This document shows, in pieces, positions 4,873 to 44,155 of a DNA stretch of 48,029 nt. Both the position numbers and the translations under genes were made by a program. Below the pieces are notes generated by a model. It ran no database searches. It was given only the letters and a program-made list of their open reading frames with translations, and was not told the origin of the DNA. Source of the stretch: a virus (Duplodnaviria > Heunggongvirae > Uroviricota > Caudoviricetes); the IMG/VR virus record IMGVR_UViG_3300018475_001475. The stretch is one strand, 5' to 3'. The first letter of the stretch is position 1. Each line of letters begins with the position of its first letter.

Positions 4873-4888
4873 ATTAATTTTGTATTGT
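4873..4888 (-). promoter_or_regulatory. ACAATACAAAATTAAT motif (perfect copy)
   Basis: Identical 16-mer also at 14295 and 29421. Confidence 0.65.
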
Positions 4889-7683
4889 TAAATAGAAGCC
4901 TTGCCGCCGTTTAGTACTAATACTTCGCCATCGGTTTGTACTAGCTTGTTAACATTGATAGAATTAACTTCCATAGTGCCATCAGCAGAGACCGCAACCT
5001 TATTCTCTGCGGAACTACCCATCACTAGACCAAGCACAGAATCAGTAGCAACCTTAGGAGCATTTGCGGCGATCATTGCAAGCACAGACCCCTCGGTATC
5101 AGCAGAGCCATTTAGCTTAGCAATCGCAGCGGCATTAGCAGCGATGTCAGAGTTCATCTTAGCCGCACCAGTGGTGTCGCTAACAATCCAGGCCGCAATT
5201 TCATTTAGAGTGTCAATATTACCATCATTGTTCTCATTAACAATCTTAGCAATTTCCTGAGCAACCTTGTAATCAACAGAACCCTCAGTCTTGTCGTCGC
5301 CATTTAGAACGGCGATAGCGTCAGCATTCTTCTTAATATCGGCCTTAACCTGAGCATCATCATAAGTAGCAGCAGTCTGAGCGTCAGCAATCATCTGAAC
5401 AAGTGTCTTGCCATCTGCGGGAGCGCCAGTGATGGCATTTACTTCGGCCTTGGTGTAAACATCAGCAGCATTAGCCTTCTTGCCAATCTCGGTATTAATG
5501 CCAGGAATTGTAGTCTCGTTTATAGTTGCAATGGCAGTAGCATTCTTTGCGATATCAGCAACAGCTGCATCAAGAGCAGTCTGCTCAGCTTTGCCAGCAA
5601 TAGAAGTGGTGTGACCAGACACAATCTCCATTAGAGTATTGTACTGAGCAGTGTGCTCATTCTGGAAGTTCTCTAGAGTGCCAATCTTAGTAGCATGCTC
5701 ACCAATGGTTGTGGTGTGTCCAGCAACGGTAGTGCTTAGACCGCCAATAGTAGCAGCGTTGGCCTCAGCAGCGGCTTTTGCTTCATTAGCAGTAATCTGA
5801 GCAGCAGAAGCATCATTTACACCCTTATTGGCCTGATTTTGAGCTGCGGTAATGCGAGCATCAAAGCCACTGTCATCAGTAATATCGGAGAACTTGGTAG
5901 GAACGGTAATGTCAACAGCCTTGTTCTCATCAGGAGTTAGTTCTTTACCATTAACCTTAACAACCTCAATAATGTTAACATCGGCGTCATCTTCGATGTC
6001 CTTTAGTTTTTCATTGATGGTAGCAATACTTTCGGTATTAGCCTTAACCTTAGGGTCGTTCTCATTCTTGTAATTCTGTAGAGCAAGAGCAACAGAAGCA
6101 GCAGTTTCAGAAGAACCACCCTGAGCGGCGGATAGAGTCTCCTCGGCCTTTTTGTTAATGTAAGCAACAACGGTGCCTAGATCCTTGTAGGCATCATCAC
6201 CAGTTGTAAACTCACCAACATATGCCTTTGTCGCATATAGACCTGCGGCGTCAGCTTTAGCATCAGCTAGAGCCTGATTTGCCTTAGTGGTAGCATCACC
6301 GGCTGCAGCATCGATAGCTTCCTGCTTAGCAGTAGCAATCTTTCCATCGGCATCAGCAATTGCTTCGGCCTTAGCGGTAGCGGCAGCACCGTGAGCGTCA
6401 TAAGTGCCCTCAGGAATAACGTCCTGCTTGCCCTCTAATAGCTCAGTGAGAGCCTCGGTGTTAGTATAACCAGCAAACTTAGCGTCCACATCATCTAGCT
6501 CAGACTTCTTAACATAAGGAGCATCTTCAATAGCCTTAACACGAGTGTCAATACCATCAACGGTAGTCTTATCAGCCTTTAGAGCTAGAGCATCAACCAT
6601 ATCAGTAGCGTCAGCCATATTATCTAGCTCAGCCTTGATCTCCTTTAGGGTATTAACAGTAGCGTCAACTTCCTCGCTCTTCATGAAGGTGTCGATAGCG
6701 CTCTTGGCGTACTCTGCAATCTCACGGATAGCGGCATCCTCATCTTCTAGAGCCTGCTTGTCGGTAGCATAAGCCTCTGTATCAACCTTGGTCTCAGCTA
6801 GAGCATAAGCAGCGTCAGCACGATCCTTAGCAACCTTTACGTCTGCATCAATCTCAGCAGAGATTTCAGTTCTGGCAGCAGCTAGAGCATCAGAAGCAGT
6901 CTTTTCTGCACCACTCTTGGCATCGGCAATAGCTTGAGTGTTCTCGCCCTTAAAGGTATTAAAATCCTCAGTAGCAACATAATCACCTAGAGCAGCCTCT
7001 AGCTCTTCCTCATCAATATAATCAATAGCATCAATACGCTCACCTAGAGCCTTCTCTGCGGCATCAGCACGAGCGGCCTCGTCAGCGATAGCCTTGAATA
7101 GACCAGTAGCAGCAACAGCATCGCCAGCACCCTCAGAAGACTCAGGCTTAGCGGCAACACCAACGGCAGACTCAAGAGCATCGATGTCATTTTCAACAGT
7201 ATCAACACGCTTAGTTAAGGCATCAATTAGAGTAGCTAGACCCTCAACGGTAGTCTTGCTAGGCTCAACCCAAACAAGACCATCCTTAGTCATTAGGGGC
7301 TGATACTGAACAGATTCTTTCTCACCAGTGGGTTGGTCGTCCTCACCAAGAATGTCACGCTCGAATACTAGCGCTCCAACTCCCTTTAGACTAACAGTGC
7401 CATCAACAGCGACAACAATAGACTTCTCGTCACCTACAGGCTTAGCACCAAGTTCCTTTAGGTTACCAGCGGCGTCCTCAATGCCATAGTGAGTAACAAC
7501 GCCATTTTCAACAACAACGATCTTCTGACCGATGTAGGCCTGAGCGCCAGCAGCATAAGTCTTTGCGGCCTCTAGGCTGTAATACACCTCACTAGCGTCT
7601 AGTGGCTGACCATTAGCACGAGCAAAGGATTTATCAAGAGTTAAAAGAGATTTAGCAGCAATCTCACCATATAATTTTGCCAT
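4888..7683 (-). CDS. Long coiled-coil fibre/whisker protein (931 aa)
   Basis: N-terminal FARANGQPLDAS..YIGQKIVVV domain seen in phage fibres; Ala-rich heptads; repeats shared with 2988..4793; ends LVLNGGKASI. Confidence 0.75.
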   Translation of the reverse strand: MAKLYGEIAAKSLLTLDKSFARANGQPLDASEVYYSLEAAKTYAAGAQAYIGQKIVVVENGVVTHYGIEDAAGNLKELGAKPVGDEKSIVVAVDGTVSLKGVGALVFERDILGEDDQPTGEKESVQYQPLMTKDGLVWVEPSKTTVEGLATLIDALTKRVDTVENDIDALESAVGVAAKPESSEGAGDAVAATGLFKAIADEAARADAAEKALGERIDAIDYIDEEELEAALGDYVATEDFNTFKGENTQAIADAKSGAEKTASDALAAARTEISAEIDADVKVAKDRADAAYALAETKVDTEAYATDKQALEDEDAAIREIAEYAKSAIDTFMKSEEVDATVNTLKEIKAELDNMADATDMVDALALKADKTTVDGIDTRVKAIEDAPYVKKSELDDVDAKFAGYTNTEALTELLEGKQDVIPEGTYDAHGAAATAKAEAIADADGKIATAKQEAIDAAAGDATTKANQALADAKADAAGLYATKAYVGEFTTGDDAYKDLGTVVAYINKKAEETLSAAQGGSSETAASVALALQNYKNENDPKVKANTESIATINEKLKDIEDDADVNIIEVVKVNGKELTPDENKAVDITVPTKFSDITDDSGFDARITAAQNQANKGVNDASAAQITANEAKAAAEANAATIGGLSTTVAGHTTTIGEHATKIGTLENFQNEHTAQYNTLMEIVSGHTTSIAGKAEQTALDAAVADIAKNATAIATINETTIPGINTEIGKKANAADVYTKAEVNAITGAPADGKTLVQMIADAQTAATYDDAQVKADIKKNADAIAVLNGDDKTEGSVDYKVAQEIAKIVNENNDGNIDTLNEIAAWIVSDTTGAAKMNSDIAANAAAIAKLNGSADTEGSVLAMIAANAPKVATDSVLGLVMGSSAENKVAVSADGTMEVNSINVNKLVQTDGEVLVLNGGKASI

Positions 7684-7703
7684 AGTTCGTTTACCTCCTT
7701 TAA

Positions 7704-9074
7704 TTACTTAAACCAAACACGGAATTTGGTAGATTCAGCCTGTAAAGGAGTGTCTAGCTCCCAGCAGTATAGCTTGTAGGCAACAGCACCATTTAGAGTG
7801 CCATCCTCATTAGTACCACGGTAGTCTGCAACCTGAATATTATCTTTAGCAACAATATCGGTATTTTCGCCCCATGCTAGACCAAACATCTCGAAATAAG
7901 GAGTGCCAGTCCAGGTAGCAGGATAAGCAAAGAACACCTTGGTTGCACCAGAGGCAGCAGTAAACTCAAGAGCTTCGCCCTCAGTGTCCATAGAAGACTT
8001 AGAACTCTTCTTAGCAGCCATGCTACGAACAACGGCGGAATCGATAGTTGCAGCGGTAGAACCGCCAGCAAAAGCATAACGATAGCCAGAGAAAGTAACG
8101 GTCTTATCTGCAATAGTTACATCTCCCGCAGGAATCTGAGCGGTAGCATATGCGTTGCCAAGGTTGGTTACAGGAACTTTACCAGCAGAATAAGAAGCTG
8201 TGCCAGAGAAGGTGTAGCTCTTAGAAGTGTCGGCGTAAAGTACCTTATCACCAGAAGCCTTTAAAGTAATTGTGCTATCCTTAGCCATTACCGCGTCGTT
8301 AGTTTTATAGTTAGTTGCAGTTGCGGGATCTGCGCCCTCAGCAAGTTTAACACTACCAACTGCAAAAGTAATTCCAGTTGCTTTGTCACCATACTCATAA
8401 GAACCGACATCAGTAATCTTTAGAGTGGCAGTAGGAACGGTGTATTCACTACCGACCTCGCCGGAACCACCAGCAGCGGTAATCTCAGCATTGGGCTTAT
8501 CGTTTGCGGTAGGATATAGTTCCTGCTGTAGCATGCCACTTAGTAAAGATTCTAGAGAAGTGCCAGCGGCAATAGTCTTGCCCTTGTTATAGTTACCAAC
8601 AGATGCAAAAGAACCAGCAAGCTCAATCTTGTTCTTTAGGAAAACATTAGTGGCGCTGTAGTTGCCATCCATTGCACTCCAACCGTGAGTTGAGTCGTCG
8701 CCTTCAACATCTAGAGCAGCGTCGTAAACATAGGAAGTGTAAGAATACTTGCCATCAGCGATAGCAGCCTTAACAATAGCTACATCACCATCCTGCTTTT
8801 CAGCATTCTCTAGATTAACCTGTGCTTCGATGGCAGCAATGTCGTCTGTACTACCAGCGGGTAGCTCTACCTGGAAAACATTAGCAGACTTAACGTCGCT
8901 ACCAATGTAAGGTAATACGCTCCATAGATGTTCTCCGTCGCCTGCCTTGATCTTAACATTACCATCTGCTAGGTATTCAAGACCCATTTCACCAGTTTTT
9001 AGCACTACGGTGGAATCAGCCCACTCTGCGGTAGTACCCTGGCGTAAAGTAATAATTGTTCTAAGTTCGGCCAT
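7704..9074 (-). CDS. Mtd_N-domain virion protein with beta-rich (Ig-like) C-terminal part
   Basis: TLRQGTTAEW..VLKTGEMGLE..KIKAGDG..SVLPY; Thr/Ser/Gly-rich beta-strand pattern downstream. Confidence 0.75.
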   Translation of the reverse strand: MAELRTIITLRQGTTAEWADSTVVLKTGEMGLEYLADGNVKIKAGDGEHLWSVLPYIGSDVKSANVFQVELPAGSTDDIAAIEAQVNLENAEKQDGDVAIVKAAIADGKYSYTSYVYDAALDVEGDDSTHGWSAMDGNYSATNVFLKNKIELAGSFASVGNYNKGKTIAAGTSLESLLSGMLQQELYPTANDKPNAEITAAGGSGEVGSEYTVPTATLKITDVGSYEYGDKATGITFAVGSVKLAEGADPATATNYKTNDAVMAKDSTITLKASGDKVLYADTSKSYTFSGTASYSAGKVPVTNLGNAYATAQIPAGDVTIADKTVTFSGYRYAFAGGSTAATIDSAVVRSMAAKKSSKSSMDTEGEALEFTAASGATKVFFAYPATWTGTPYFEMFGLAWGENTDIVAKDNIQVADYRGTNEDGTLNGAVAYKLYCWELDTPLQAESTKFRVWFK

Positions 9075-9418
9075 TATGCATTTCCTCCATTAATTAAATT
9101 TATTTTACTCGGATCAAATACCCCGCCATTGCTTAGTGGCTCGTACATTGATTCCGTAGTATTCCATTGATATAAGGCTTTTTCGTCGCCTACTTTATAA
9201 ATACAATTGGCATCACCTACAGACGGCAGGTCTGTATATGTATCTGCACAAAAAGTATCCCCATAACCAATATAAGGTAGGTCACACCAGGCAGTAGTAC
9301 CATCACCAATTTTTAATTTCTTTGTATCATATTCAAAACCAGGTTCACCTGCAGCCAAAACAGGGTTGACTTCTACCCAGCGGGCTGAGGTGCCTCTTTT
9401 TAGTTGTAATTCAGACAT
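9074..9418 (-). CDS. Mtd_N-domain protein
   Basis: LQLKRGTSARWVEVNPVLAAGEPGFEYDTKKLKIGDGTTAWCDLPY is a near-consensus match; ends LINGGNA. Confidence 0.85.
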   Translation of the reverse strand: MSELQLKRGTSARWVEVNPVLAAGEPGFEYDTKKLKIGDGTTAWCDLPYIGYGDTFCADTYTDLPSVGDANCIYKVGDEKALYQWNTTESMYEPLSNGGVFDPSKINLINGGNA

Positions 9419-9421
9419 CTC

Positions 9422-9916
9422 TTAAATCTCCCCATAGTCAGTATTTGCAGTTTCAATATTTTGAATTTGTTCGTTAATATAAGTTTTTAAACTTTCTTCC
9501 AGTTCTTCGACTGCTTCTGCATCGACCTTCATATCTAAGGTCTGCTGCACTGCAATCATTTCTGTTTTAGTTGTTTCCATTTGAGTAATAAGATTTGTGA
9601 CGTTCTCTTGTACTTCAACAACATCAGTCTCCCCAACTTGCTCTTCCATAGCGTCAACATCTTCTTGCATTGCTTCCATAGCCATTTTGATGGTTTGAAT
9701 TTCTGCCTGCAATGTGTTATCATCTCCGCCGCTAGAGTTGCCAAAGACCGGCAAATTTTCATAAGTCGTCTTGCCATCACCAATTCGCAGAGTTTTCAGA
9801 TCTACATCGTAGCAAGGTTCACCAGAGGCCGGAACAACGTCTTTGTTCAACTCCCAATTTTCTGTCTTATCTCTACGAAATTGGAATATGGTTTTAATTC
9901 TTTTAATTGTAGCCAT
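9422..9916 (-). CDS. Mtd_N-domain protein with coiled-coil tail
   Basis: FQFRRDKTENW..PASGEPCYDVDLKTLRIGDGKTTYENLP. Confidence 0.8.
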   Translation of the reverse strand: MATIKRIKTIFQFRRDKTENWELNKDVVPASGEPCYDVDLKTLRIGDGKTTYENLPVFGNSSGGDDNTLQAEIQTIKMAMEAMQEDVDAMEEQVGETDVVEVQENVTNLITQMETTKTEMIAVQQTLDMKVDAEAVEELEESLKTYINEQIQNIETANTDYGEI

Positions 9917-9942
9917 TATTTCACCCGCAATCTAATTAAGTG

Positions 9943-24500: not shown

Positions 24501-25659
24501 CTATTAATCCTTTATCTCTTAAGAAATCTTTCAAATCTTTGTTTTCTACAAGTAGTAGTCTGGCTCTTTCAACGGCCTTATCTCTTTCTTTTTGAAGACT
24601 ATCAACAAGCTCTCTACGAATGTTAGAAATTTCATTCATAACATTTTCGTCAAATCCAATCTGATCTACTTGTGCTTTACAACTAATATTTGCAACCTGC
24701 TGCATTCCCATACAATAATCAATATCATACATATTAATCTTGGCGTCTCTAAATCCGATAAGATCAAGCTCTTTCATTTTCCCAGTAAGAGTGTTTTGAC
24801 CTTTACTCTTGGAGTTATTGAAATTTACCGATATGCCATTATCTTTTGCAAGAGCATTTGCTCCAGACAATAACTTCGAAACAGTATCCGCAAGCTGTTT
24901 AATAGTACCGTTGTTATTATTAAGTTTCATTGTATCGGAGGAGAGTTCATCAATAGCATCATTGATCTTACTAATCTGATTAAACGACTTAACAATTTGA
25001 ATTACTGCATTCATTTTCATTCCATCGTTTTTTGTTTCCTCATCAATAAAACTAACAACCTGTGCATATAACATAGGCTTGTCTTCTTCTATTGGATAAT
25101 TAGCAAATGGGTCATAACCAGTCATTCTAATCACATCTCTCCGATTAGTTTTATATTCTTCGTTTACTTCAGGGAGATATGCATCTGGTAATCTATCTTC
25201 TTTGTCAAGTTCAACTTTTGCTGCAGCTTTAGCTTTCTCAATATAAACATCAAAAATGTCACTGTCTTGCCAACGCATGCCGCGATATTGGACCATTCCT
25301 ATATTTTTAATATATGCATCCCAAATTGTTGTTTTGCGATTTTTATTGGAGTCATCAGCCCACTCCAAATAACTAGAATCCCATATCTTACTTAAAAATG
25401 GTTTATCTAATCTAATTAGGGCTTCTTGAATTGATGCTTTAGTACAAGTTCCAAATGTATCTGTTCGTTCATCCCATTTCATCGCAATCTTTCTTGCGCA
25501 TTCTTTGCACATTGTAGTGATACCTGTTAATACCATTGGATCTGAACTCATATAAAATTCCGACTTCTTTTTTTCTTTATTACAATATGGACACAAATAT
25601 TTAGTATCATCTACCGTTTTCTTTGTGGAAGTAGTTTTCTTTCCTGCACTTCTTGCCAT
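24469..25659 (-). CDS. Zn-finger protein upstream of TerL (YonG-like; candidate terminase small subunit)
   Basis: CPYC..CKEC N-terminus; overlaps the TerL start. Confidence 0.6.
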   Translation of the reverse strand: MARSAGKKTTSTKKTVDDTKYLCPYCNKEKKKSEFYMSSDPMVLTGITTMCKECARKIAMKWDERTDTFGTCTKASIQEALIRLDKPFLSKIWDSSYLEWADDSNKNRKTTIWDAYIKNIGMVQYRGMRWQDSDIFDVYIEKAKAAAKVELDKEDRLPDAYLPEVNEEYKTNRRDVIRMTGYDPFANYPIEEDKPMLYAQVVSFIDEETKNDGMKMNAVIQIVKSFNQISKINDAIDELSSDTMKLNNNNGTIKQLADTVSKLLSGANALAKDNGISVNFNNSKSKGQNTLTGKMKELDLIGFRDAKINMYDIDYCMGMQQVANISCKAQVDQIGFDENVMNEISNIRRELVDSLQKERDKAVERARLLLVENKDLKDFLRDKGLIDEFGQVVDSE

Positions 25660-29303: not shown

Positions 29304-29319
29304 ATCACTTTTGTATTGT
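29304..29319 (-). promoter_or_regulatory. Motif variant ACAATACAAAAGTGAT
   Basis: First 11 nt identical to the 16-mer; just upstream of a terminator. Confidence 0.5.
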
Positions 29320-29420
29320 TATCACCAACAATTACCTTGTGTTTTCTATATATCCATATAAGAAAATTTAGAATGAAAAAATTGGAAAGTCAAAAAGTCG
29401 TTGGTATTACTAGCTTTTTT

Positions 29421-29436
29421 ATTAATTTTGTATTGT
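29421..29436 (-). promoter_or_regulatory. ACAATACAAAATTAAT motif (perfect copy)
   Basis: Exact 16-mer in the 240-nt gap before clpP. Confidence 0.65.
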
Positions 29437-29455: not shown

Positions 29456-30340
29456 TTACATTTTATTATTTTCTCTATATTTTTGGACTCTTTGCTTAGT
29501 TTTTTCTTTGTTAACGATATGTTGGCATTCTTCGCACCTACATTTTGTTGTATTACGACTATCAATCTGAAATTCTTTTCCGCAATCAATACACCATTTC
29601 GTCTTCATAGCGCCATTAGAATCTTGACAACCCTTACACATATGGCCAAATTTTGTGCTTTTCTTAATTAACTTTCCGCACTTAGAACATCTAACAATTT
29701 TGCTTTGCCCAGTGTGTTTAAGATATGCATATGCCAATTCACAGCAATCTTGCTCGTTTAATTCCAATACTATATCGTCTTCGGTTTGATCCATAAACTT
29801 AACAAATAAGCATTTTGTATCATTTTTAACTGGTAATCCTATTAATCCAAGCTTTAAAAATCCATGTAATATATTTTCTCTATCCTCAACCGGAACAGAC
29901 ACTCTTGCCAACTTAAACAATTCGGTAATATTATAAGAAATTAATCCATTCTCGAAACCATATGATGCCTTCTGAACTTTGGCCATACATAATAGAACAA
30001 ACAATATTTTTTCATATCTTAAATTCTTTTGAGACGTGATAGTTTCTATTTCTTTTTTTGTTATCTTAACTGACTCAACATTGAAAAATGGCTTCTTTGC
30101 AGACTTCTTAATACAATCAGAGATAATATTTGAATAACCGTGTTCGCTAAAAATATCATGATGTTTCTCTAACCACTTAATAATAGAAGAGTAGCTATCA
30201 TCACTATTTTTATGCAATACATGATAATTATATCTAGCAATTAAGTCAATTTTTTGTTTGATACTCTTGACATCATCTCTTTGGCCTGTCAAAACATCCT
30301 TCGCATACTTTTCTTCATTCAGAATCATCATCATTTTCAC
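29456..30340 (-). CDS. RNAP-adjacent protein with wHTH-like segment and two C-terminal Zn ribbons
   Basis: YNITELFKLARV..LHGFLKLGLI; CSKC..CKGC and CIDC..CEEC; basic tail; start overlaps the RNAP stop. Confidence 0.7.
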   Translation of the reverse strand: MKMMMILNEEKYAKDVLTGQRDDVKSIKQKIDLIARYNYHVLHKNSDDSYSSIIKWLEKHHDIFSEHGYSNIISDCIKKSAKKPFFNVESVKITKKEIETITSQKNLRYEKILFVLLCMAKVQKASYGFENGLISYNITELFKLARVSVPVEDRENILHGFLKLGLIGLPVKNDTKCLFVKFMDQTEDDIVLELNEQDCCELAYAYLKHTGQSKIVRCSKCGKLIKKSTKFGHMCKGCQDSNGAMKTKWCIDCGKEFQIDSRNTTKCRCEECQHIVNKEKTKQRVQKYRENNKM

Positions 30341-33083
30341 CTCCGATTATTTTTGTATGCAGCGAAAATCTCTCACCGCAGAATTCAAAATCTCCGTTTT
30401 CATCTTTAACTGGGAAGCTTATAATATTATTATTGTTCTTAAGAACATTTTTAAACAGTTGTTCACCAGCAACATCCCATGCAAAAGTCTTATTTTTGCT
30501 TGAACTATAGCATAAATCTACAACTATGTTAGATAACACATCTAAACTTGGACAAATCTTATGACATTCTTCCATAAAAGTTTGTTTTAATTGATCCACG
30601 GCCAGTCCAACATTCTCATCAGATTCCTCATTTTTACGCTGTTTTCTTAAAATAAGTTGCATGTTTGTGTTATATTCTTCATACAAAACTCTTATAGCAT
30701 TAAACTCTTCATCGGTATATTCTGAGTCATTTTTTAATATATTTTTGTCAAAATACACATCAGGAAGCACATCTGTTGACTGGAAAATGCCCTCAATTTT
30801 CCAACAAATTCTATTCATAACACCTGGAGCAACACTAATTGGAAGATATTTTTCATAATTATCTAGAAAAATTTGTTCTTCTTGCGTTAAATTTTCACTA
30901 TTTTGCAACTCATATAGCGATTTTCCGAACCTAATTTTGCAATTTGACCCAACAGATTTATTGTATTGATCATATTTCGACTTAATGTGAGAATATCTAT
31001 AAATAAAGAAATATGGCTTCAAATCAGCAGCAACTCTCTTAAAAAGCATCATTTTTTCTCTTTTTTCTTCGCTATCAGAGTCTTTTATCTTACAAGAACG
31101 TGGATCAATCCATGTTTTAGGTATTGGACGAGCCACAATGCCCTTAATCCTATCAATTGCGTTTTGCTGATAGTTCATCATTGTATCAATTCTATAGCTT
31201 AAAAGCTTATATTCTTCACTATCTTTATCAAATTTTTCTCTCAGGGAAATCATATTCGTAGCTCTATTAGTAATACTTCCAATTGAATCTCCAAAACCGT
31301 TAATTTCAGATGCTACGAAGTCTTCCTCTGTGGGAATCTTCTTAACGGTATTACTTTGCACACACATTAATGTCTCTTTATATTTAAAAGCATCCAATAA
31401 TACCTTATTATTTGTAGAGAAGCAGCTATCAGAATCATAATCAGCACCATTCAATCTAATAGCAGTAGTGTCCCAACTATTAAGAAAACAACAAGTATGA
31501 ATATGTCTATACCACTTTTTCATCTCATCACTTGCTACAACACGCATTTTGCATACATTATTATGAGATGTCATAGGGGCTCTAAACATTACAATCTCAT
31601 CAACACCATTATCAGTCCAATATTGATGATAACATTCACCCTCTTTAAGTAAACCTGTAATTGGCATACCAAACATATTCTGTAGAAGAGAGTATGGGTC
31701 GTTTCCAATGATTGCATAGTCACCTTCAACATCTAAAACACCAATTTTTGCCGTTTTTATACGTTTTTGAATCATTCTTTGCACTTTTGAGCGCACATAA
31801 GGGTCGTCTACTAACCCTGGATTTGCCATAATTGCCTTGCACATTGGATCCATATAGTCAACTGTTCGCTCATCTAAACCTTGTCCACACATATATAAAA
31901 TCAATTTTCTCCAATCTAAACCAAGACAATCCTTAATTTTTTTAACAGTAGGAGAGATTAATTGATCAATTTGTTCGTCATTTAACTCAAAATCCTGCAA
32001 ATATTGATAATTTGTAGTATGAACATTTCTTAATTTATGAGGAGTGCTTTTTGCTACAGCAAATTCATAGCCGTGTTTCATACAATTTTCATAATATTCC
32101 TCATAACTAGAATAAGAGTCCCATAATTTTAACATTGATACTGTAATAATGGCATCAGCATCTCTAACATCTCTTTCAGTACCCCATGCGTCAATAATTT
32201 TATATGTATGAGCGACTTCTTCTGCAAATTCTTGAAATGGAATAGTAAATAACATACCTTTTAAGAAACTACATCTTGTATTCACACCAGATAATGGCTC
32301 ATCACCCTCATTTAATTCTTGCGCCCACTTGGCACTCATCTCTGGAGTAACAAACCCCATACCATCTGAAACATTATATTCAATATTATAATCAGCTATA
32401 GGCTTCACAATTGGCTCTTCAAGACTAGGATCAGAGTCGTCAACAAGTAACACATCACTCTTAAAGTGAGTAATTGCATCATTAACGACTATTATTCTTG
32501 GCCAAGAAACACCTATACTTGCAGAACAAGCCAATGCATAATATGCGTTTAACTTAGCTGGTACAAATTTTTTTTCTAAATTTCTGCCGTTATTTAAACG
32601 AGTCATTAATTCTTCATGGATTTCTTCATTTACAAAAATAATTGTGCTTTTCTTAATAGATCCTGCTGTTCCAAGTAATCTTTTATATTTAACGGTTCTA
32701 CCATCAACCGTGACAGTAAAACCTTGCAAAGCTCTTCTATAGTCCTTATTAGAATCCATTACAAGCATTAAATAATCCTGTTGAAATTGTGTTTTATATA
32801 GTTTATTATACAACTCACGTATTTTACTTTTATTTTCTACTGAATTATCTTGTTTTTTAATCTGTTTGATCTCTTTCTTGATATTAGTGGCAATCATATC
32901 GTCATTTTGCCGTCCCTGAATTTGCGTCATCCATCTTAAAACCTGAGACGATCCAAGACTTACTACCATTTGAGATTCTTTTCGTACTTTATTTAATTCC
33001 AAATGTAAATCCCAATTATGTTTAGATAAATACCCTGTATTTATTTTTAACACAAAAGTTTGATTTTTTTGTGACTTTGCCAC
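30315..33083 (-). CDS. yonO: YonO-type single-subunit (RdRP-like, double-psi barrel) DNA-dependent RNA polymerase
   Basis: VSDGMG, FLKGML, FRAP, catalytic NGADYDSD, IGSITN..YQQNAIDRIKG..PYFF motifs; SPbeta-like synteny. Confidence 0.88.
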   Translation of the reverse strand: MAKSQKNQTFVLKINTGYLSKHNWDLHLELNKVRKESQMVVSLGSSQVLRWMTQIQGRQNDDMIATNIKKEIKQIKKQDNSVENKSKIRELYNKLYKTQFQQDYLMLVMDSNKDYRRALQGFTVTVDGRTVKYKRLLGTAGSIKKSTIIFVNEEIHEELMTRLNNGRNLEKKFVPAKLNAYYALACSASIGVSWPRIIVVNDAITHFKSDVLLVDDSDPSLEEPIVKPIADYNIEYNVSDGMGFVTPEMSAKWAQELNEGDEPLSGVNTRCSFLKGMLFTIPFQEFAEEVAHTYKIIDAWGTERDVRDADAIITVSMLKLWDSYSSYEEYYENCMKHGYEFAVAKSTPHKLRNVHTTNYQYLQDFELNDEQIDQLISPTVKKIKDCLGLDWRKLILYMCGQGLDERTVDYMDPMCKAIMANPGLVDDPYVRSKVQRMIQKRIKTAKIGVLDVEGDYAIIGNDPYSLLQNMFGMPITGLLKEGECYHQYWTDNGVDEIVMFRAPMTSHNNVCKMRVVASDEMKKWYRHIHTCCFLNSWDTTAIRLNGADYDSDSCFSTNNKVLLDAFKYKETLMCVQSNTVKKIPTEEDFVASEINGFGDSIGSITNRATNMISLREKFDKDSEEYKLLSYRIDTMMNYQQNAIDRIKGIVARPIPKTWIDPRSCKIKDSDSEEKREKMMLFKRVAADLKPYFFIYRYSHIKSKYDQYNKSVGSNCKIRFGKSLYELQNSENLTQEEQIFLDNYEKYLPISVAPGVMNRICWKIEGIFQSTDVLPDVYFDKNILKNDSEYTDEEFNAIRVLYEEYNTNMQLILRKQRKNEESDENVGLAVDQLKQTFMEECHKICPSLDVLSNIVVDLCYSSSKNKTFAWDVAGEQLFKNVLKNNNNIISFPVKDENGDFEFCGERFSLHTKIIGGENDDDSE

Positions 33084-33097: not shown

Positions 33098-33113
33098 ATT
33101 CATTTTGTATTGT
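33098..33113 (-). promoter_or_regulatory. Motif variant ACAATACAAAATGAAT directly before the RNAP SD
   Basis: 15/16 match, followed immediately by GAGGTGG. Confidence 0.55.
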
Positions 33114-35414: not shown

Positions 35415-35935
35415 TCACTTACCTCCATTAATTCTGTATTGTCAATAATATTACCAATAACCTTTATGTCAGAAAAATCCCCATAAGGATCCTGCATCAT
35501 AAAACAAAATGTAGAATATTCAAACTTTTGATATTTACCATTCCAATAATCCCAACCATTAAATTCAATACCGTCAAGCGGCACAGCATCCATCATATTC
35601 ATCTCATTATTCCACCAAATAAGATACCTATCTGACGTGTTTCCGCATTTAAACTCAACAATATCTCTCTCAAAGATTGGCGTTTTATAATTATCGTGCC
35701 ACCCCGTGTAACGACACACTGTACTGGGATCTATTTCATACCATTCCCAATAATCATATTCTGCGGCACCTCTATATCTACAATTAGTACTAATAATAGA
35801 ATGTGTTACGCCGTCGCCATATTCCTCGTTGGCTTTAACATAATACCCATAAATCCATTCACCATTTTGAGATTTGCGCCATGGTGAACTACTTTCCCAT
35901 TTTGCCCTACAAATATGTTTATCCATAAGCATCAC
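35411..35935 (-). CDS. YopX-family protein
   Basis: GEWIYG..IDPSTVCRYTG..IFERDIV..VIGNIIDNTEL. Confidence 0.85.
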   Translation of the reverse strand: MMLMDKHICRAKWESSSPWRKSQNGEWIYGYYVKANEEYGDGVTHSIISTNCRYRGAAEYDYWEWYEIDPSTVCRYTGWHDNYKTPIFERDIVEFKCGNTSDRYLIWWNNEMNMMDAVPLDGIEFNGWDYWNGKYQKFEYSTFCFMMQDPYGDFSDIKVIGNIIDNTELMEVSE

Positions 35936-37903: not shown

Positions 37904-37928
37904 ACTCTTACCTCTTAAAATTTTATTT

Positions 37929-38111: not shown

Positions 38112-38135
38112 AATACACCTCTTAAAAAATTGTTT

Positions 38136-38555: not shown

Positions 38556-38586
38556 AATTACCTCTTAAAAGTTTGTTTTTAAATGT

Positions 38587-38784: not shown

Positions 38785-38808
38785 AATATCACCTCTTAAA
38801 GTCTAATT

Positions 38809-39015
38809 TTAAGTCAATTTTTTACCACATATAGGGCAATAATTTATTTTAATTTCTGCCCTACCTTCACCCTCCGCCTTAATACCAAACTTTTTGTCCT
38901 TGCAATCATAAACCATATATAAATATGTATAATCACCAATGTCTAAAGTTAATGTTTTTGTGCCGTTCCAAGGATGTTTTTGATATTTTTCTATACAACA
39001 ATATTCGCAATTCAT
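38809..39015 (-). CDS. Small Zn-binding protein
   Basis: MNCEYC..INYCPICGKKL. Confidence 0.75.
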   Translation of the reverse strand: MNCEYCCIEKYQKHPWNGTKTLTLDIGDYTYLYMVYDCKDKKFGIKAEGEGRAEIKINYCPICGKKLT

Positions 39016-39026
39016 ACCATTACCAT

Positions 39027-39428
39027 TTATTCCTTTTCAGCTATACAATACAAATCATCATCTACTCGATTTTTAATCAAATAAAGAATCTTCTGTTCTA
39101 AGTTGCCATCTGACTCTTCCCAGTCCATATACTTTTCATTGTATGGGTCTTCGACAAAATCAATCAGCTCGTCAATAAAACTTGAAAAAGATTCACATGC
39201 TCTCTCACCAGTGTCTGTCGATACCCATCTGTCATAGCTATCTCTTTCTGCTTTGATACGAGGTTCTAGTTCTTTTTCAATACGCCACTCGGCAGAGCTT
39301 CGTCTATCTATTTCTGATTCTAAATCTTCTCGATATTTGTATATTACGCAAGAAGAACACCATCTATCTCTGCATTCACTGCAAGGAGAATAATAACTTC
39401 TACCATCAATTTCAATGTACTTACCCAT
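39027..39428 (-). CDS. Hypothetical protein
   Basis: CSEC..CSSC N-terminus; coiled-coil middle. Confidence 0.7.
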   Translation of the reverse strand: MGKYIEIDGRSYYSPCSECRDRWCSSCVIYKYREDLESEIDRRSSAEWRIEKELEPRIKAERDSYDRWVSTDTGERACESFSSFIDELIDFVEDPYNEKYMDWEESDGNLEQKILYLIKNRVDDDLYCIAEKE

Positions 39429-39456
39429 ATCGTCACCGTTTAAAATTCGTATTTTA

Positions 39457-39798
39457 TTATATTGTCAATCCAATACTAGCAATTCGAAAATCAGATATCT
39501 TGCAGTCTTCAATTTCGTTGACAATAATATCTGCGCCACTATGGAAAATAACGCCATCTACTGTCAGCTTGCATACCTGGTTCTCAGAATCCCAAGTTAC
39601 AATATGAGATGTTCCAGTGGTTGCCCCAATAACCTTTGCATAGCCTTCAACGTCTTCTTTGTAAATGATAGGAAGATTCGTTTGTAGATTATTTAATGCA
39701 TTTTCTACGGCTTCCGCTGTATAAATAACCCCGTTACAATCTGGCTTATCGACTGGAATTGGGATTGTAATTTTTACTTTTGTATTTTCTACTCTCAT
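39457..39798 (-). CDS. Hypothetical protein with possible degenerate prohead-protease-like fold
   Basis: KPDCNGVIYTAEAVENAL..LPIIY..VIG pattern. Confidence 0.6.
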   Translation of the reverse strand: MRVENTKVKITIPIPVDKPDCNGVIYTAEAVENALNNLQTNLPIIYKEDVEGYAKVIGATTGTSHIVTWDSENQVCKLTVDGVIFHSGADIIVNEIEDCKISDFRIASIGLTI

Positions 39799-39816
39799 AA
39801 TATTTACCTCTCAAAA

Positions 39817-40014
39817 TTAAACCTTTAAACTCTCAAAATATTTCATTGCGTCTTCATATTCTTTTTTTATTTTTTCTTTCAGCTCTTTTCCACTTTCGCT
39901 ATAGTCAGGAAGAATCGCCATCATGCGTCTTACTGCGTGATAATATTTTTGTGTGGCAGGATGTACAGAATTTTGATTCTCTGCTTTGCCGCTGTATTTA
40001 GGATAAAAAATCAT
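39817..40014 (-). CDS. Hypothetical protein (start MIFYPKY)
   Basis: ATG 1 nt after the upstream TAA. Confidence 0.6.
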   Translation of the reverse strand: MIFYPKYSGKAENQNSVHPATQKYYHAVRRMMAILPDYSESGKELKEKIKKEYEDAMKYFESLKV

Positions 40015-40015
40015 C

Positions 40016-40111
40016 TTAATTCCCACCATTTGCCGAAAGCAATGCACATATTACTAACCCAAAAGATGCAGACAGTGGAATAATCCAAAGTAAATTCCAT
40101 GCACTAATCAT
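40016..40111 (-). CDS. Small membrane peptide, 31 aa (not in ORF track)
   Basis: MISAWNLLWIIPLSASFGLVICALLSANGGN; overlaps upstream stop. Confidence 0.65.
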   Translation of the reverse strand: MISAWNLLWIIPLSASFGLVICALLSANGGN

Positions 40112-40454
40112 TTTTATCCCTCACAGTATAAATTTTTCCTTCTTGATCTATGATTTCATATCTCTCTAGGAAAGAGTTCATAGATACTTCGTCTGAGATT
40201 GTGACTTTATATTGAGTTTCGTATTCAAGTGGGAGTGTATTACGTGCAAATAAAGCACACAGGAATGCACCAAAAAGGCATCCGGCAATTGCGCCAGCAA
40301 CGAAACTCCACCAACCAAGCTCTGGCATACAACACACGCCAACAACAATTGTTATGAATGCGGTCACAATCGTAAACGCCGCCCAAAATATATTCCAATC
40401 AAATCCAAACGTTACGGCGACTTCTTCTATTGCCAAAATTTCTACACCTGTCAT
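40104..40454 (-). CDS. Two-TM membrane protein (start MTGVEIL)
   Basis: GGAGG SD; two hydrophobic helices. Confidence 0.7.
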   Translation of the reverse strand: MTGVEILAIEEVAVTFGFDWNIFWAAFTIVTAFITIVVGVCCMPELGWWSFVAGAIAGCLFGAFLCALFARNTLPLEYETQYKVTISDEVSMNSFLERYEIIDQEGKIYTVRDKND

Positions 40455-40455
40455 A

Positions 40456-40731
40456 TTAATTACCTCCGTCCATCTTTGCACCGCAGTTGGGGCAGTACCA
40501 TGTTCTTTTGTGGTCATTGCACATATGGCATTCGGAACAGTACCACTTATCGTCTATCGGTTCGCCAGAATCGTAATGGTGATGAATCCACCGCCCATGA
40601 ACCACTTCCACGGCATCCACGGTGGGCATTTCCCCAACTATCGCAGTTGCATAACCATAACCCGGCTTTCGATTTTTACGAAGTTTTTCTAACAACTCAT
40701 TGGCATCAATCATCCGCTTTTTACTTGCCAT
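40456..40731 (-). CDS. Zn-ribbon phage protein
   Basis: MIDANEL..PTVDAVEVVHGRW..CSEC..YCPNCGAKMD. Confidence 0.8.
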   Translation of the reverse strand: MASKKRMIDANELLEKLRKNRKPGYGYATAIVGEMPTVDAVEVVHGRWIHHHYDSGEPIDDKWYCSECHMCNDHKRTWYCPNCGAKMDGGN

Positions 40732-40921
40732 CGTCTTTTCCTCCGTCCATTATATTTCCACAGGATTCACAATAATTTGGCTGTTCGCCTCTAAGCCATG
40801 CATGTCTGCGATCATAGTCGCAGATCGAGCATTTTAGATATCTTTCAGTCCAGAAGCCAGTTTCTGGAGTGCCTTGTTGTTTATCTATGGTGATCCAGTG
40901 GCCGTGTTTAAGTTCTTCCAT
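40721..40921 (-). CDS. Zn-ribbon phage protein
   Basis: KHGHW..CSIC..NYCESCGNIMD. Confidence 0.75.
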   Translation of the reverse strand: MEELKHGHWITIDKQQGTPETGFWTERYLKCSICDYDRRHAWLRGEQPNYCESCGNIMDGGKDDGK

Positions 40922-40975
40922 ACTTATTTCCTTTCATAAACTTGACGCAAAATTTCATCATACTTCCGCATACTG

Positions 40976-41164
40976 TCAAGCCAAGTCAGAAATCTCATAA
41001 TCATCTTCGGATGTTCCTTCATCGATATCCTTAATTTCTTTGCCCATACGATAACGCCATAAAGAACAGTTGGTGGAAGGACATCTACGTACTTCTGCCA
41101 TATTACCGCAGCAACAATCGATGCACTTTAGGCGAATTGCCTTAGATCTACTAATTCGCTCCAT
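40976..41164 (-). CDS. Small Cys-rich phage protein
   Basis: KAIRLKCIDCCCG..EVRRCPSTNCSLWRYRMG. Confidence 0.75.
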   Translation of the reverse strand: MERISRSKAIRLKCIDCCCGNMAEVRRCPSTNCSLWRYRMGKEIKDIDEGTSEDDYEISDLA

Positions 41165-41176
41165 ATAATTTGCTCC

Positions 41177-41506
41177 TTACTTATTAAACCACGCCACATA
41201 AACAGTACCAGTTGCTTTTGCAGCCTCTAAATACTTAACGTTGCATCTAACATATCCAAGTTCATTTCCGTCTGCATCAAGCAGATCACCGCAGCCATCA
41301 TAGGCGGTATAAAAACCACCACGAACATCTTCGATGAAATCATCAATAGGGAGGAAGAGACCATAACCCTTTTGGACATTTAGAATCATAGCTTTGGCAT
41401 ACAAAGTCAGAAGTTCCTTTCGTACTTTATGATCATCCTTATCTAACTTGGAGACTCGCGCCTCATAGCATTGCATAAGTAGACTAATTTCCCATTGTAA
41501 ATCCAT
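41177..41506 (-). CDS. Conserved phage hypothetical protein, first gene of the leftward accessory operon
   Basis: GGAGTG SD; downstream of a consensus promoter. Confidence 0.75.
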   Translation of the reverse strand: MDLQWEISLLMQCYEARVSKLDKDDHKVRKELLTLYAKAMILNVQKGYGLFLPIDDFIEDVRGGFYTAYDGCGDLLDADGNELGYVRCNVKYLEAAKATGTVYVAWFNK

Positions 41507-41517
41507 ATTATCACTCC

Positions 41518-41533
41518 ATTAATTTTGTACTGT
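41518..41533 (-). promoter_or_regulatory. Motif variant ACAGTACAAAATTAAT
   Basis: 15/16 match, between predicted TSS and SD. Confidence 0.55.
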
Positions 41534-41545
41534 TTAAGTATGAGG

Positions 41546-41574
41546 ATTATACCACATTTCCCTTAATTTGTCAA
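41546..41574 (-). promoter_or_regulatory. Consensus sigmaA promoter, leftward
   Basis: TTGACA-17-TATAAT with extended TG. Confidence 0.9.
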
Positions 41575-41619
41575 GAGGGTATAATCAGATAAAATTTTAT
41601 CAACTTTTAAATTATTTTT

Positions 41620-41853
41620 TACTCATCAGTATCAAAATGGCACTGATGATCGGTGTTAAAATAATACCCATAATAAATAATATAATAAATAATATATAAT
41701 ATATATAAGACTCGGTTTGGCTTTGCCACCTCGTCTTGAGACTCGCACATGCTCGTCTTTCGCTTCGCATTCGCTCAGCTTATGAAACTCGGCTTTGCCT
41801 CGTTTAACGGCTCGCTAATCGCTTCGCCTTAGGGGAACGGCGTTCGCTTACGC
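41620..41853. other. Candidate replication-origin-like segment
   Basis: Hairpin TCATCAGT/ACTGATGA, nearly pure A/T run of about 40 nt, then GC-rich CTCG/CGCTTCGC repeats. Confidence 0.35.
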
Positions 41854-42216
41854 TCACTTGGTTTCGTCGTCTTGGGGCTTGGGCTTTCTTTTTTCTTCTT
41901 CATACTTGGCTTGAGACACAATTTTCTTGGTGTTGATGTAGAGGTTGCCTTTTTCGTCTGTCTTTATAAAACCTTTTTTCTCCAACGCCTTTCGGGTTTT
42001 GTAGTAGTTGTTTGGTTGGGTAATACCAGCCATACGCTGTACATAGGCTGTGCTGGGAGCGAAGCTTCCGTCGCCCTTGCAACCTAATAGGGTGAGGAGG
42101 ACTTTGGCCTCATTGCCGTTGCATATTTGGTTTATAGCAGAGAATAACTCTACAGGGTACGCTACGAAGTTTTTTGTCTTTTCTGGTTTGTCGTGGAATA
42201 CCTGTGGGGCATTCAT
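41854..42216 (-). CDS. Winged-helix DNA-binding protein resembling a replication-initiator N-terminal domain (start MNAPQ)
   Basis: NEAKVLLTLL..STAYVQRMAGIT..YKTRKALEKKGFI; AGGAGG SD; own promoter. Confidence 0.7.
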   Translation of the reverse strand: MNAPQVFHDKPEKTKNFVAYPVELFSAINQICNGNEAKVLLTLLGCKGDGSFAPSTAYVQRMAGITQPNNYYKTRKALEKKGFIKTDEKGNLYINTKKIVSQAKYEEEKRKPKPQDDETK

Positions 42217-42246
42217 AGGCCATTCCTCCTTTCTGTTTAGTGACAC

Positions 42247-42262
42247 ATTAATTTTGTGTCGT
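42247..42262 (-). promoter_or_regulatory. Motif variant ACGACACAAAATTAAT at predicted TSS
   Basis: Exact ACAAAATTAAT core. Confidence 0.5.
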
Positions 42263-42266
42263 TGAT

Positions 42267-42295
42267 ACTATAGCATACTTTTTTTGGTTTGTCAA
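42267..42295 (-). promoter_or_regulatory. SigmaA promoter, leftward
   Basis: TTGACA-17-TATAGT with extended TG. Confidence 0.85.
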
Positions 42296-42299
42296 GGGG

Positions 42300-42730
42300 G
42301 AGTTTTAGTTTGAAGTACCCCCCTACCTGTGTAGTTAAAAGTACCCCCGGTCGGGCCATTTAATAGGGGATACTTGTTGTTTTTATGTTGTAGAAGTGGG
42401 TAAATAAGATTTACTTGTAGTTGGTTTTTAGTTATTTGTAAGGGTAAGTTTTATTTACCCGTGGTTTTTAATAGGGTTTTGTTGGGGTTTGGTAGTTTTG
42501 GTGTAAAGGATTACATTATTTGGTGTTATTTTTTGGGCTTTATTTTTAAGGAATATTAATAGGAGTTTTTAATAAGTATCTGTTAATGATCTACCGAATA
42601 GTTTGACAAACTTTAAAGGGTTGGTGAATTTAATAGGTATTTCTTAATGAATACGGGAAGTTGACGAGTTTTGAGGTTGGATGTAGATGTTTTTTGTGAC
42701 TATTTTGTAGGTTGTATGATGTGGGTTTAG
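42300..42730. other. Non-coding, strongly G/T-skewed tract with short repeats
   Basis: Few C on the + strand; TTAATAGG x4; AAGTACCCCC at 42313, 42339 (third copy at 42811). Confidence 0.6.
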
Positions 42731-42790
42731 CGTAGCTCGGATTTTGCAGTCAGTGTGTAAATAAACTACCTTAGATCCCCTCGCTAAAAA

Positions 42791-42838
42791 CCACAACATA
42801 TTGTGGTTTTAAGTACCCCCGACCACTATATATAGTAT
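42791..42838. promoter_or_regulatory. Tandem NrdR-box-like palindromes
   Basis: CCACAACATATTGTGG (42791-42806) and CCACTATATATAGTAT (42823-42838), 32 bp start to start. Confidence 0.65.
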
Positions 42839-42860
42839 AAAAAGTCGGACAAATAGGGAT

Positions 42861-42888
42861 TTGACTTACCATGTAAATGTGGTATTAT
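42861..42888 (+). promoter_or_regulatory. SigmaA-like promoter, rightward (early)
   Basis: TTGACT-16-TATTAT with extended TG. Confidence 0.65.
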
Positions 42889-42914
42889 GTTAGTGTAATC
42901 AATAACTGATTACG

Positions 42915-43073
42915 CCAAGGGCAATAGCCCTTGGGCTGTTCCTTGAAAACTTGGTCTGTTCCCTGTATCCGTTTTTTGGGCTTGAAAAAGCCGTTTCTGT
43001 ATCGGATACTTGGGCTTGAAAAAGCCGTGAACAGGTTACGCCAAAATTTTGGGGAAATTGTTCCTTGAAAACT
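42915..43073 (+). promoter_or_regulatory. rrn-like antitermination leader: hairpin, boxA, two GAAA hairpins, boxA
   Basis: CCAAGGGC/GCCCTTGG stem; TGTTCCTTGAAAACT at 42937 and 43059; GGCTT-GAAA-AAGCC twice. Confidence 0.65.
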
Positions 43074-43420
43074 GAATATCACGGCATATGGTAACATTGT
43101 AGAGATACACACGCCTAGCCACCAGTCCGAGCAGGCTACAAGTCCTTTGGGATACTGTAAAACTGTCGCAGGCAATGGGGGCGTCCTGTCTTATAAAGGG
43201 CAGGGGATGAGATTTCCGTGGAGTGATAACCGTAGGCACGCCATGCCCAGCCATACTCACTCGCCATATGTGCCCTGCATGGGGCTATTGGAGATAATAC
43301 ACACCCATAGGGTTATTGTACACGCAGCAAATACCACAGTATACAATAACCATGTGACACTATGGGTCACTTTGAGGGGATAGTATATCTGTCCCTTGAA
43401 AGTGGCTCACAGCCACAAAT
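43074..43420 (+). ncRNA. Candidate structured non-coding RNA or long leader
   Basis: No credible ORF; several stems including CCCATAG+GGTTATTGTA / TACAATAACC+CTATGGG (43304-43366). Confidence 0.4.
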
Positions 43421-43456
43421 ATATTGAGCGTAAACGCTCGGAAAGAGGTAATAACC

Positions 43457-44128
43457 ATGAGTAAGAACAACATGACTATTTTCGCCGAAGCACTTTCTGT
43501 AAACCGTGACTTCAAGAACGCCCGCATCAGTGGACCTGCCGTTGGTGTAGCCAACGCTCGCAAGTGGGTGGCTGCTGTCAAGGCACTGCGTTTCCCTGCC
43601 TATGCTGTCCGTGTATATCGCTACAACAACATGGGCGAAGCTGAAACTGTCGCCAAGTGCAACGAAACTCCCGTATACGACGCCCTTGCACCTATCCTGG
43701 ACATGGTAGGCGAAGTCAACGGTGCGAAGCTGAACGCCCACAACATCGCAGAGGAAGTCATCTCTGCCGCTCTGCGTTTCCGTGTCATCGATATCACTCC
43801 CGAAATGGCTCACGCTCGCTGTGAAAAGCGTGTAGCTAAGAAAGCCATGGACGAGGACGAGAGCGAGGATACTATCGCTGCATACAACGCTGCCTGTGAC
43901 GAGGTAAAACGTCTGGAAGAAGAGCCTGGCAACTGCAAGCGTCTTGCTGAAATTCAGGCTGAAACTGCGTTCATCAAGGCTGTGGAAATCCTGCTTGGTG
44001 ACGCCATCAACAAGCAAGCCATGAAGTCTGCCGAAGAAGTCGCAGCCGAAGAAGAAGCCAAGCGTGCTGCACGCCGTGAAAAGACTAAGGCTAAGCGTGC
44101 TGCTAAGAAAGCTGCTGCAAACGCCTAA
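43457..44128 (+). CDS. First early gene, highly expressed-type protein of unknown function (start MSKNN, 223 aa)
   Basis: AGAGGT SD; strong codon bias; Ala/Lys/Arg-rich helical tail. Confidence 0.85.
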   Translation: MSKNNMTIFAEALSVNRDFKNARISGPAVGVANARKWVAAVKALRFPAYAVRVYRYNNMGEAETVAKCNETPVYDALAPILDMVGEVNGAKLNAHNIAEEVISAALRFRVIDITPEMAHARCEKRVAKKAMDEDESEDTIAAYNAACDEVKRLEEEPGNCKRLAEIQAETAFIKAVEILLGDAINKQAMKSAEEVAAEEEAKRAARREKTKAKRAAKKAAANA

Positions 44129-44139
44129 CCCTGCACTCA

Positions 44140-44155
44140 ACAGCACAAAATTAAT
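44140..44155 (+). promoter_or_regulatory. Motif variant ACAGCACAAAATTAAT on the + (sense) strand
   Basis: 14/16 match with exact ACAAAATTAAT core. Confidence 0.5.

Follow-up and report, generated by a model that had tools for sequence, protein, structure and literature searches.

A repeated, oriented 16-nt box in a distant relative of phage SPbeta as a candidate operator and roadblock array for a repressor of the MrpR/SroF family

In SPbeta, a phage of Bacillus, the repressor MrpR binds a repeated element both in chromatin affinity purification sequencing (ChAP-seq) and in electrophoretic mobility shift assays (EMSA), and represses PaimR and PyosX (PMC10516654). This element is SPBRE, the SPbeta repeated element (Lazarevic 1999, as cited in PMC10516654). 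The SroF protein of phage phi3T encircles the DNA as a monomer and binds an asymmetric box of 26 bp (bioRxiv 10.1101/2025.11.27.690993); because a protein of the SroF type binds such a box as a monomer, its site can be non-palindromic and directional. Here, we describe a 48,029-nt stretch of a member of the Caudoviricetes (IMG/VR record IMGVR_UViG_3300018475_001475; the whole stretch is called the window throughout), in which the 16-mer ACAATACAAAATTAAT recurs, mostly between genes. Judged from the sequences of the window, its relatives and SPbeta, the copies of this 16-mer probably form an array of SPBRE-type operators and roadblocks for a repressor of the MrpR/SroF family.

According to this proposal, the 16-mer would be the DNA box of the phage's MrpR/SroF/YopR-type master repressor and thus the counterpart of SPBRE. 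A monomeric repressor with integrase fold would read the asymmetric box, so that each site would have a direction. Copies positioned 1-17 nt past the -10 element, or in the spacer between -35 and -10, would block initiation by the host RNA polymerase in the lysogen. Copies within operons, in front of Shine-Dalgarno (SD) sequences or hairpins, may serve as oriented roadblocks, by analogy with the 'stoperators' of mycobacteriophage L5; alternatively, they may be left-over 5' borders of exchanged gene cassettes. The kind of system is itself not new, as the silencing scheme is already known from SPbeta.

The window belongs to a distant relative of SPbeta: it encodes a YonO-like RNA polymerase (RNAP; about 26% identity) as well as YonJ-, YonG- and YonD-like proteins, and a megablast search with 18 kb returned no DNA-level match to the window among known phages. 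IMG/VR contains relatives with RNAPs 66-88% identical to that of the window, and five genomes of 156-159 kb (G1 to G5) served for comparison, with G1 and G2 analysed whole. Three further searches returned nothing: the RNAP protein has no relative in genome_contigs, a 223-aa early protein has no relative in viral_contigs, and an exact 40-mer from the end of the window is not found in viral, metagenome or genome contigs.

Within the window, nine copies of the 16-mer have two mismatches or fewer, and each is co-directed with the local genes. A pattern search with up to three mismatches yields 11 matches (2.08 expected; at least 11 in none of 100 shuffles); the two additional ones, at 25144 and 39773, have three mismatches, lie in coding sequence and are probably due to chance. 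The search recovered every position given in a preliminary description of this DNA: perfect copies at 4873, 14295 and 29421 and variants at 29304, 33098, 35427, 41518, 42247 (minus strand) and 44140 (plus strand).

Both consensus leftward promoters of the window carry the motif. The first leftward promoter (42267-42295, minus strand) is a consensus sigmaA-type promoter, TTGACA-17-TATAGT with TG extension, and the motif copy ACGACACAAAATTAAT (42247-42262, minus strand, two mismatches) starts 4 nt past its -10 element, which is an operator position. The second (41546-41574, minus strand) is TG-extended and matches the consensus in 12 of 12 positions (TTGACA-17-TATAAT); here the motif copy ACAGTACAAAATTAAT (41518-41533, minus strand, one mismatch) starts 12 nt past the -10 element and touches the SD sequence GGAG of a 109-aa gene. 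These two copies bear out the sigmaA start-site context described earlier. A third copy (35427-35442, minus strand, one mismatch) occupies the final codons of an open reading frame (ORF) that had been labelled yopX, a label that agrees with its Pfam match (PF09643, 28 bits); it abuts the SD sequence of the next gene and starts 2 nt past a promoter-like site with 10 of 12 matches at 35445-35472.

The remaining six copies stand at gene borders. The copy at 33098-33113 (minus strand, one mismatch) shares bases with the stop codon of a small ORF and borders directly on the SD sequence of the YonO-like RNAP gene; the promoter scan detected no promoter upstream of it and it was therefore classed as a within-operon copy. 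The 294-aa gene next in line after the RNAP gene, which obtained no function from Pfam or PHROGs, ends 20 nt ahead of a perfect copy (29421-29436, minus strand); this copy heads the late region, and its position is conserved in six of six aligned relatives. The copy at 29304-29319 (minus strand, two mismatches) is shared by the closer relatives (L004, L006) alone: it is positioned 45 nt past a TTGACT-17-TAAATT site and immediately 5' of a terminator-like hairpin, which itself precedes a ClpP-like gene. The other two perfect copies are found at 14295-14310 (minus strand), 8 nt ahead of the SD sequence of a NUMOD3/HNH-type endonuclease ORF in an intron-like insertion of 1.25 kb, and at 4873-4888 (minus strand), overlapping the stop codon of a 931-aa tail-region gene with a strong hairpin next to it. 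The first rightward gene (43457-44128) ends 11 nt ahead of the only copy on the plus strand (44140-44155, two mismatches), and a strong terminator hairpin comes after this copy. The contexts that had been reported for these sites thus recur: three copies (33098, 35427 and 41518) touch an SD sequence and the one at 14295 is 8 nt away from one, and strong hairpins follow those at 4873, 29304 and 44140 (z -4.4, -4.0 and -5.9, respectively). The hairpin after the copy at 29421 is decayed in the window and intact in relatives.

The five relatives contain between 30 and 42 copies each with two mismatches or fewer, against 0-1 for a reversed-word control, and the strand of the motif flips blockwise with gene direction. 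In G1, G2 and the window taken together, 73 of the 86 copies are outside the ORFs of a crude gene call, even though non-coding DNA makes up only 8-11%; most of the remaining 13 were, on inspection, only in short or antisense ORFs. The preliminary description had called for a scan of relatives, in which equal frequencies in coding or antisense positions would speak against its proposals; the scan showed the stated excess of copies outside ORFs, and only two loci departed from the sense orientation. The claim that the motif is always in sense orientation thus stands for the window and fails for the relatives, which have two conserved reversed loci. About two thirds of the copies (G1, G2 and window; our own count from a crude scan) have an SD-like word and a start codon in the next 20 nt or so, often at a distance of 0-5 nt. 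The conserved box is sharply 16 nt: the flanks show no conservation except for a G at +17, which derives from the SD sequence, and all 16 positions are near-invariant among phages whose RNAP proteins are just 66% identical.

The register with host-type promoters was determined by listing near-consensus TTGACA-N16-18-TATAAT sites throughout G1 and G2; all fractions are our own counts. Of the promoters of the type 'cTTGACAaat...TGnTATAAT', about 75-80% carry the motif. In the commonest register the motif starts 1-2 nt past the -10 element, in others it starts 4-17 nt downstream, and in a third register it lies in the spacer, with its ACA forming the end of the -35 element. Promoter-associated copies represent about 35-40% of all copies; more than half have no promoter within 50 nt and are positioned before SD sequences inside operons. 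Overlap of the box with sigmaA promoters, either in the spacer or between -10 and SD, is seen in G1, G2, the window and a contig of the window's own phage (L057, see below), and these are the same two placements as in SPbeta.

Only two loci have the motif in reversed orientation; both are in sigmaA promoters and both are conserved in G1 and G2. At the first, a variant (the reverse complement of ACAATACAATATTAAT) fills the spacer of the promoter of an MrpR-like gene (G2:20460, G1:64169). At the second, a perfect copy is situated at about +10 to +25, between the -10 element and the SD sequence of a 389-aa integrase gene (G1:16661, G2:70658). The presence of reversed copies in promoters of lysogeny genes points to recognition as DNA, and the one in the promoter of the MrpR-like gene resembles autoregulation.

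These loci also bear on the alternative that the motif works as RNA, namely as a site in 5' leaders or between cistrons for a translational repressor or enhancer, an antiterminator or a processing nuclease acting beside the SD sequence. The nearly invariable sense orientation, the SD-like word and start codon that soon follow two thirds of the copies, the several copies directly before hairpins and the A-rich, unstructured character of the motif are all consistent with such a role. However, the transcript of a promoter does not include a copy in its -35/-10 spacer; in the commonest register, transcription is inferred to start at about motif position 6, so that the conserved first five bases would be absent from the RNA; the motif at the two reversed loci is not in the sense RNA; and the homologous SPbeta element is bound as DNA. 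We consider an RNA site very unlikely.

The gene behind the first reversed locus in G2 (L028:2516-3403) encodes a protein of 295 aa that matches both MrpR domains: MrpR_N_CB (PF22822) with 47.8 bits (cut-off 27) and MrpR_C_cat (PF22823) with 26.5 bits. It aligns with SPbeta YopR/MrpR over residues 1-258 (blastp E 1.7e-11). MrpR homologues are found in G1 to G4, each beside a XerD-like recombinase (PF22822 with 47.8-57.7 bits, cut-off 27), and all 120 of the homologues listed have both PF22822 and PF22823, many of them on contigs of 155-170 kb. In G2, as in the window's phage, the MrpR-like gene directly follows an integrase gene (324-326 aa, PF00589 1e-31 to 1e-35); G1, G2 and G4 have another integrase (tyrosine type, 389 aa), as does G3 (serine type). 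The neighbouring XerD-like recombinase was also considered as the binder of the motif, which is unlikely for an asymmetric site in about 40 copies.

No MrpR homologue is encoded inside the window or in the first 22 kb to the right of its divergent region. The window's own phage was met at 100% identity in JGI and ENA contigs, and exact-protein look-ups allowed a walk along contigs with 100%-identical overlaps of 2.3, 3.0 and 8.9 kb. The walk arrives at a Phage_integrase gene of 324 aa and, behind it, an MrpR-like gene of 305 aa (L057:10186-11103; PF22822 and PF22823); the distance from the divergent region, in rightward direction, is about 36 kb. The walked stretch adds further copies of the motif: perfect or near-perfect ones in the spacer register (L057:3200 and 8182) and others in the +1 register (L057:5228 and 16800). 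The 305-aa protein matches PDB entry 9rd5 with E 6.5e-14 and the YopR/MrpR structures with about 1e-7. The title of 9rd5 reads merely 'Core-binding (CB) domain-containing protein', and the entry is probably phi3T SroF; if chain 9rd5_H has a numbering offset of two residues, the residues that the SroF preprint describes as reading the DNA (L25, Y26, F234 and R238) would be kept in the alignment.

To compare the motif with SPBRE, the latter was re-derived from the SPBc2 record as ACAAATACAAA[AT]AATATGTATA: there are about 12 copies, all in sense orientation, placed either in the spacer of TAGACA-17-TATAAT promoters or between -10 and SD, and none is in the late operon. The likeness extends over several levels. 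Both elements are repeated, asymmetric, A/T-rich intergenic boxes that are co-oriented with the genes, and both occupy the sigmaA spacer, with ACA ending the -35 element, or the region between -10 and SD. In both phages an MrpR-family gene of integrase fold is beside a tyrosine recombinase gene, and a YonO-type RNAP is encoded too. In sequence, the left half of SPBRE, ACAAATACAAA, resembles ACAATACAAAA of the motif, with ACA-ATACAAA in common if one gap is allowed. Because anatomy, protein family and gene neighbourhood all match the SPbeta system, the array is probably a further case of this known system, with a new box sequence.

There are differences as well. The 16-mer is a new sequence, sharply 16 bp long and without the right half of SPBRE, TATGTATA; an exact copy was not found in SPbeta, where the best match has two mismatches and is in coding sequence. 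Copies are more numerous (30-42 per 157-kb genome, compared with about 12 in SPbeta); many are within operons and some in the late region, from which the copies of SPbeta are absent. The repressor is just 23-27% identical to SPbeta MrpR. A tblastn search of G1, G2 and the window with SPbeta AimR, which is blind to distant homologues, returned no AimR homologue at E<=1e-3. In SPbeta itself, a 17-nt perfect left half of SPBRE, ACAAATACAAAAAATAT, is present in the last codons of yonO just before the terminator (SPBc2 61378; L002:11357-11378, minus strand); its position is similar to that of the motif copy after the RNAP operon, and it is not in the published list of ChAP-seq peaks.

Several observations weigh against an operator array. 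The repressor gene is not part of the window, and a chain of contigs rather than a single record connects the two; the promoter of this gene in the window's phage has just a degenerate reversed copy of the motif (13 of 16 positions, two 1-nt gaps). The box of 16 bp without flanking conservation is shorter than the 24 bp contacted by SroF, and the right half of SPBRE is missing. More than half of the copies are away from recognisable promoters, and several belong to the late region or are wedged between a stop codon and a hairpin, places at which the use of a plain operator is not evident. Nor would a simple operator need a nearly absolute sense orientation. Finally, G5 has no MrpR-like gene, neither at the syntenic site nor anywhere in its 155.6-kb record, and yet it has 30 copies of the motif.

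The last point is tempered by the divergence of G5, which is 84-90% identical to G2 and G3 over the aligned stretches. We estimate that, at this divergence, roughly 70% of neutral 16-mers would still have two mismatches or fewer; the 30 copies thus neither support nor refute a second function. Their persistence may reflect slow decay after loss of the gene, or could be the sign of a second function, and G5 may be a natural repressor-less (virulent) variant. At the corresponding locus of G5 (L031:700-1500, minus strand), the XerD-like integrase gene is kept; behind it, in place of an MrpR-like gene, are a consensus promoter that lacks the motif and a small Cys-rich ORF.

The copies far from promoters have a precedent outside the SPbeta group. 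Stoperators have reportedly been described by Brown et al. in 1997 for mycobacteriophage L5 and cluster A, with gp71 as the repressor. They are short asymmetric sites present in dozens of copies, which occupy short intergenic gaps and face one way with respect to transcription; silencing of the prophage has been proposed to result from a block of both initiation and elongation at these sites. Many asymmetric sites in a single orientation, in short intergenic gaps and away from promoters, are also what we find in G1, G2 and the window. There are differences: the L5 site is 13 bp and its repressor is a helix-turn-helix protein, whereas the candidate binder here is an integrase-fold homologue of MrpR and not a repressor of the gp71 type. 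The hosts and phage lineages of L5 are unrelated to this phage and the analogy is one of function only.

The preliminary description had left three options for the motif: a promoter of the YonO-type RNAP, an operator, or an RNA site for a translation or antitermination factor. The MrpR homologue, the promoter register, the reversed loci and the SPBRE-like anatomy favour the operator and weaken the other two. Its further point, that copies abutting an SD sequence are unlikely to act as classical upstream promoters, is sound in our judgement. Likewise, the motif was rejected as the -10 element of a sigma-type promoter: where it abuts the SD sequence, the start would fall in or past the SD.

As a phage promoter, the motif would be the promoter, or a core element spanning the start site, of the single-chain YonO-type RNAP (922 aa, encoded at 30315-33083), which would transcribe early and late genes again once the host polymerase had set the programme going. 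A directional, sharply bounded element of 16 nt in 30-42 copies per genome is typical for promoters of phage polymerases; those of the T7 class are directional words of about 16-23 bp, likewise with many copies in genomes that encode their own RNAP. All relatives share one copy at the start of the late region, shortly past the RNAP operon; copies precede HNH genes, free-standing or in introns; and G5 retains motif and RNAP without an MrpR-like gene. In addition, the promoter sequence of YonO is not defined in the literature (PMC5467207).

The distribution of the motif is hard to reconcile with this role. Phage RNAP promoters head late units independently of host promoters; the motif does not, being locked to a -10 element of host type, reversed at promoters of lysogeny genes and scarcer in the late region (in G2 about 7 copies in its 56 kb, against about 32 in the 100 kb of the early region; our own count). 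A phage promoter leaves the register of 1-2 nt behind the host -10 element and the copies in the spacer without rationale, and at the reversed copies it would direct antisense transcription into int and mrpR. In SPbeta, YonO uses a single start site, which lies upstream of yonK (PMC5467207), and the segment of SPBc2 that is bracketed by the published primer-extension primers (about 60.33-60.57 kb) contains neither SPBRE nor a similar word. This one-promoter pattern is better matched by another conserved block at the head of the late operon (29352-29372, minus strand), which reads TCTAAATTTTCTTATATGGAT in the window and TCGAGATTTTCCTAATGGAT in G1. The block is found in six of six aligned relatives, about 55-65 nt past the motif copy at this position, and it is single-copy in G1, G2 and the window. 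Since a single-copy block agrees with the single start site of YonO in SPbeta, it is a better candidate than the motif for the late promoter of the YonO-type RNAP, although it is to be taken as a lead only; the yonN-yonK gap of SPbeta has no counterpart of it. On balance, we regard the 16-mer as an unlikely promoter of the phage RNAP.

The two functions could also be combined: the 16-mer may be a repressor site in the lysogen, while in lytic growth the 16-mer as such, or those of its copies that are within operons and beside hairpins, may be a promoter or anti-pause signal for the YonO-type polymerase or a partner protein. Such a double role would account for the strict sense orientation, for the copies in the late region and for the persistence of the motif in the MrpR-less relative, and it would provide the first defined recognition sequence for the YonO-type polymerase family; we consider it distinctly unlikely.

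A last alternative takes the motif mainly as a boundary for recombination or cassettes: a short sequence in common to exchangeable genes (homing endonucleases, accessory genes), which would border them on their 5' side and promote modular shuffling, comparable to the promoter-stem-loop cassettes of T4-type phages, with regulation being secondary. Some observations fit this reading. One orthologous site has a terminator behind the motif in G2 and G4, where G5 has an SD sequence and an extra gene instead; copies stand ahead of inserted HNH genes, both in the window (14295) and in the RNAP region of G2; and copies flanked by a stop codon and a hairpin resemble remnants. What a boundary leaves unexplained is the fixed register with sigmaA promoters, the spacer copies, the reversed copies at lysogeny promoters and the near-invariance of all 16 positions despite RNAPs that are only 66% identical. 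A boundary is moreover compatible with, and not opposed to, an operator that travels with its promoters. We find it highly improbable that exchange is the main function of the motif.

If the 16-mers are indeed operators and roadblocks of an MrpR/SroF-family protein, the silencing scheme of SPbeta extends to a lineage of uncultivated gut and rumen phages of about 155-170 kb, with repressors about 25% identical to MrpR. The 16-mer and the 305-aa protein would then be a new pair of box and repressor, in which the protein would bind the box and thereby block initiation or elongation; such a pair would be usable for studying DNA reading by the integrase fold and the blocking of elongation within operons. 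The repeated box can now also be told apart from the better candidate for a YonO-type late promoter.

The insertion in the G2 RNAP region (L008:9840-10540; about 147.8-148.8 kb of G2) measures about 1 kb relative to the window, carries a perfect motif with an SD sequence and encodes a 221-aa ORF in which an HNH-like sequence motif was read by eye. In the window, the intron-like insertion at 13100-14510 (1.25 kb relative to G2) splits a structural-region gene into exon-like ORFs (14487-14837 and 12357-13094) and carries the NUMOD3/HNH-type ORF at 13404-14273. The earlier assignment of this ORF as an intron HNH gene agrees with the group I intron matches that flank it, which are below threshold (28.2 and 18.8 bits, gathering score 50); at gathering thresholds, Rfam has no match in the window. 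Related intron-like elements of G1 and G2 have kept a sigmaA promoter and the motif and contain no ORF.

Further to the right in the same phage, about 25 kb from the divergent region, is a gene for a 420-aa reverse transcriptase (RVT_1; L051:12981-14243). For the 330-aa gene just downstream of it, exact-protein look-ups returned only two contigs; this gene may be variable, as for example in a diversity-generating retroelement or a retron-type defence system.

The divergent region of the window (42300-43456) comprises 1.1 kb between the leftward and rightward units and has no ORF with a family match. It contains three copies of AGTACCCCC (42314, 42340 and 42812) and, at 42861, a TTGACT-16-TATTAT promoter. 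Between this promoter and the first rightward gene (43457-44128) stretches a long leader, in which hairpin units of TTCCTTGAAAAC and GGCTTGAAAAAGCC are repeated.

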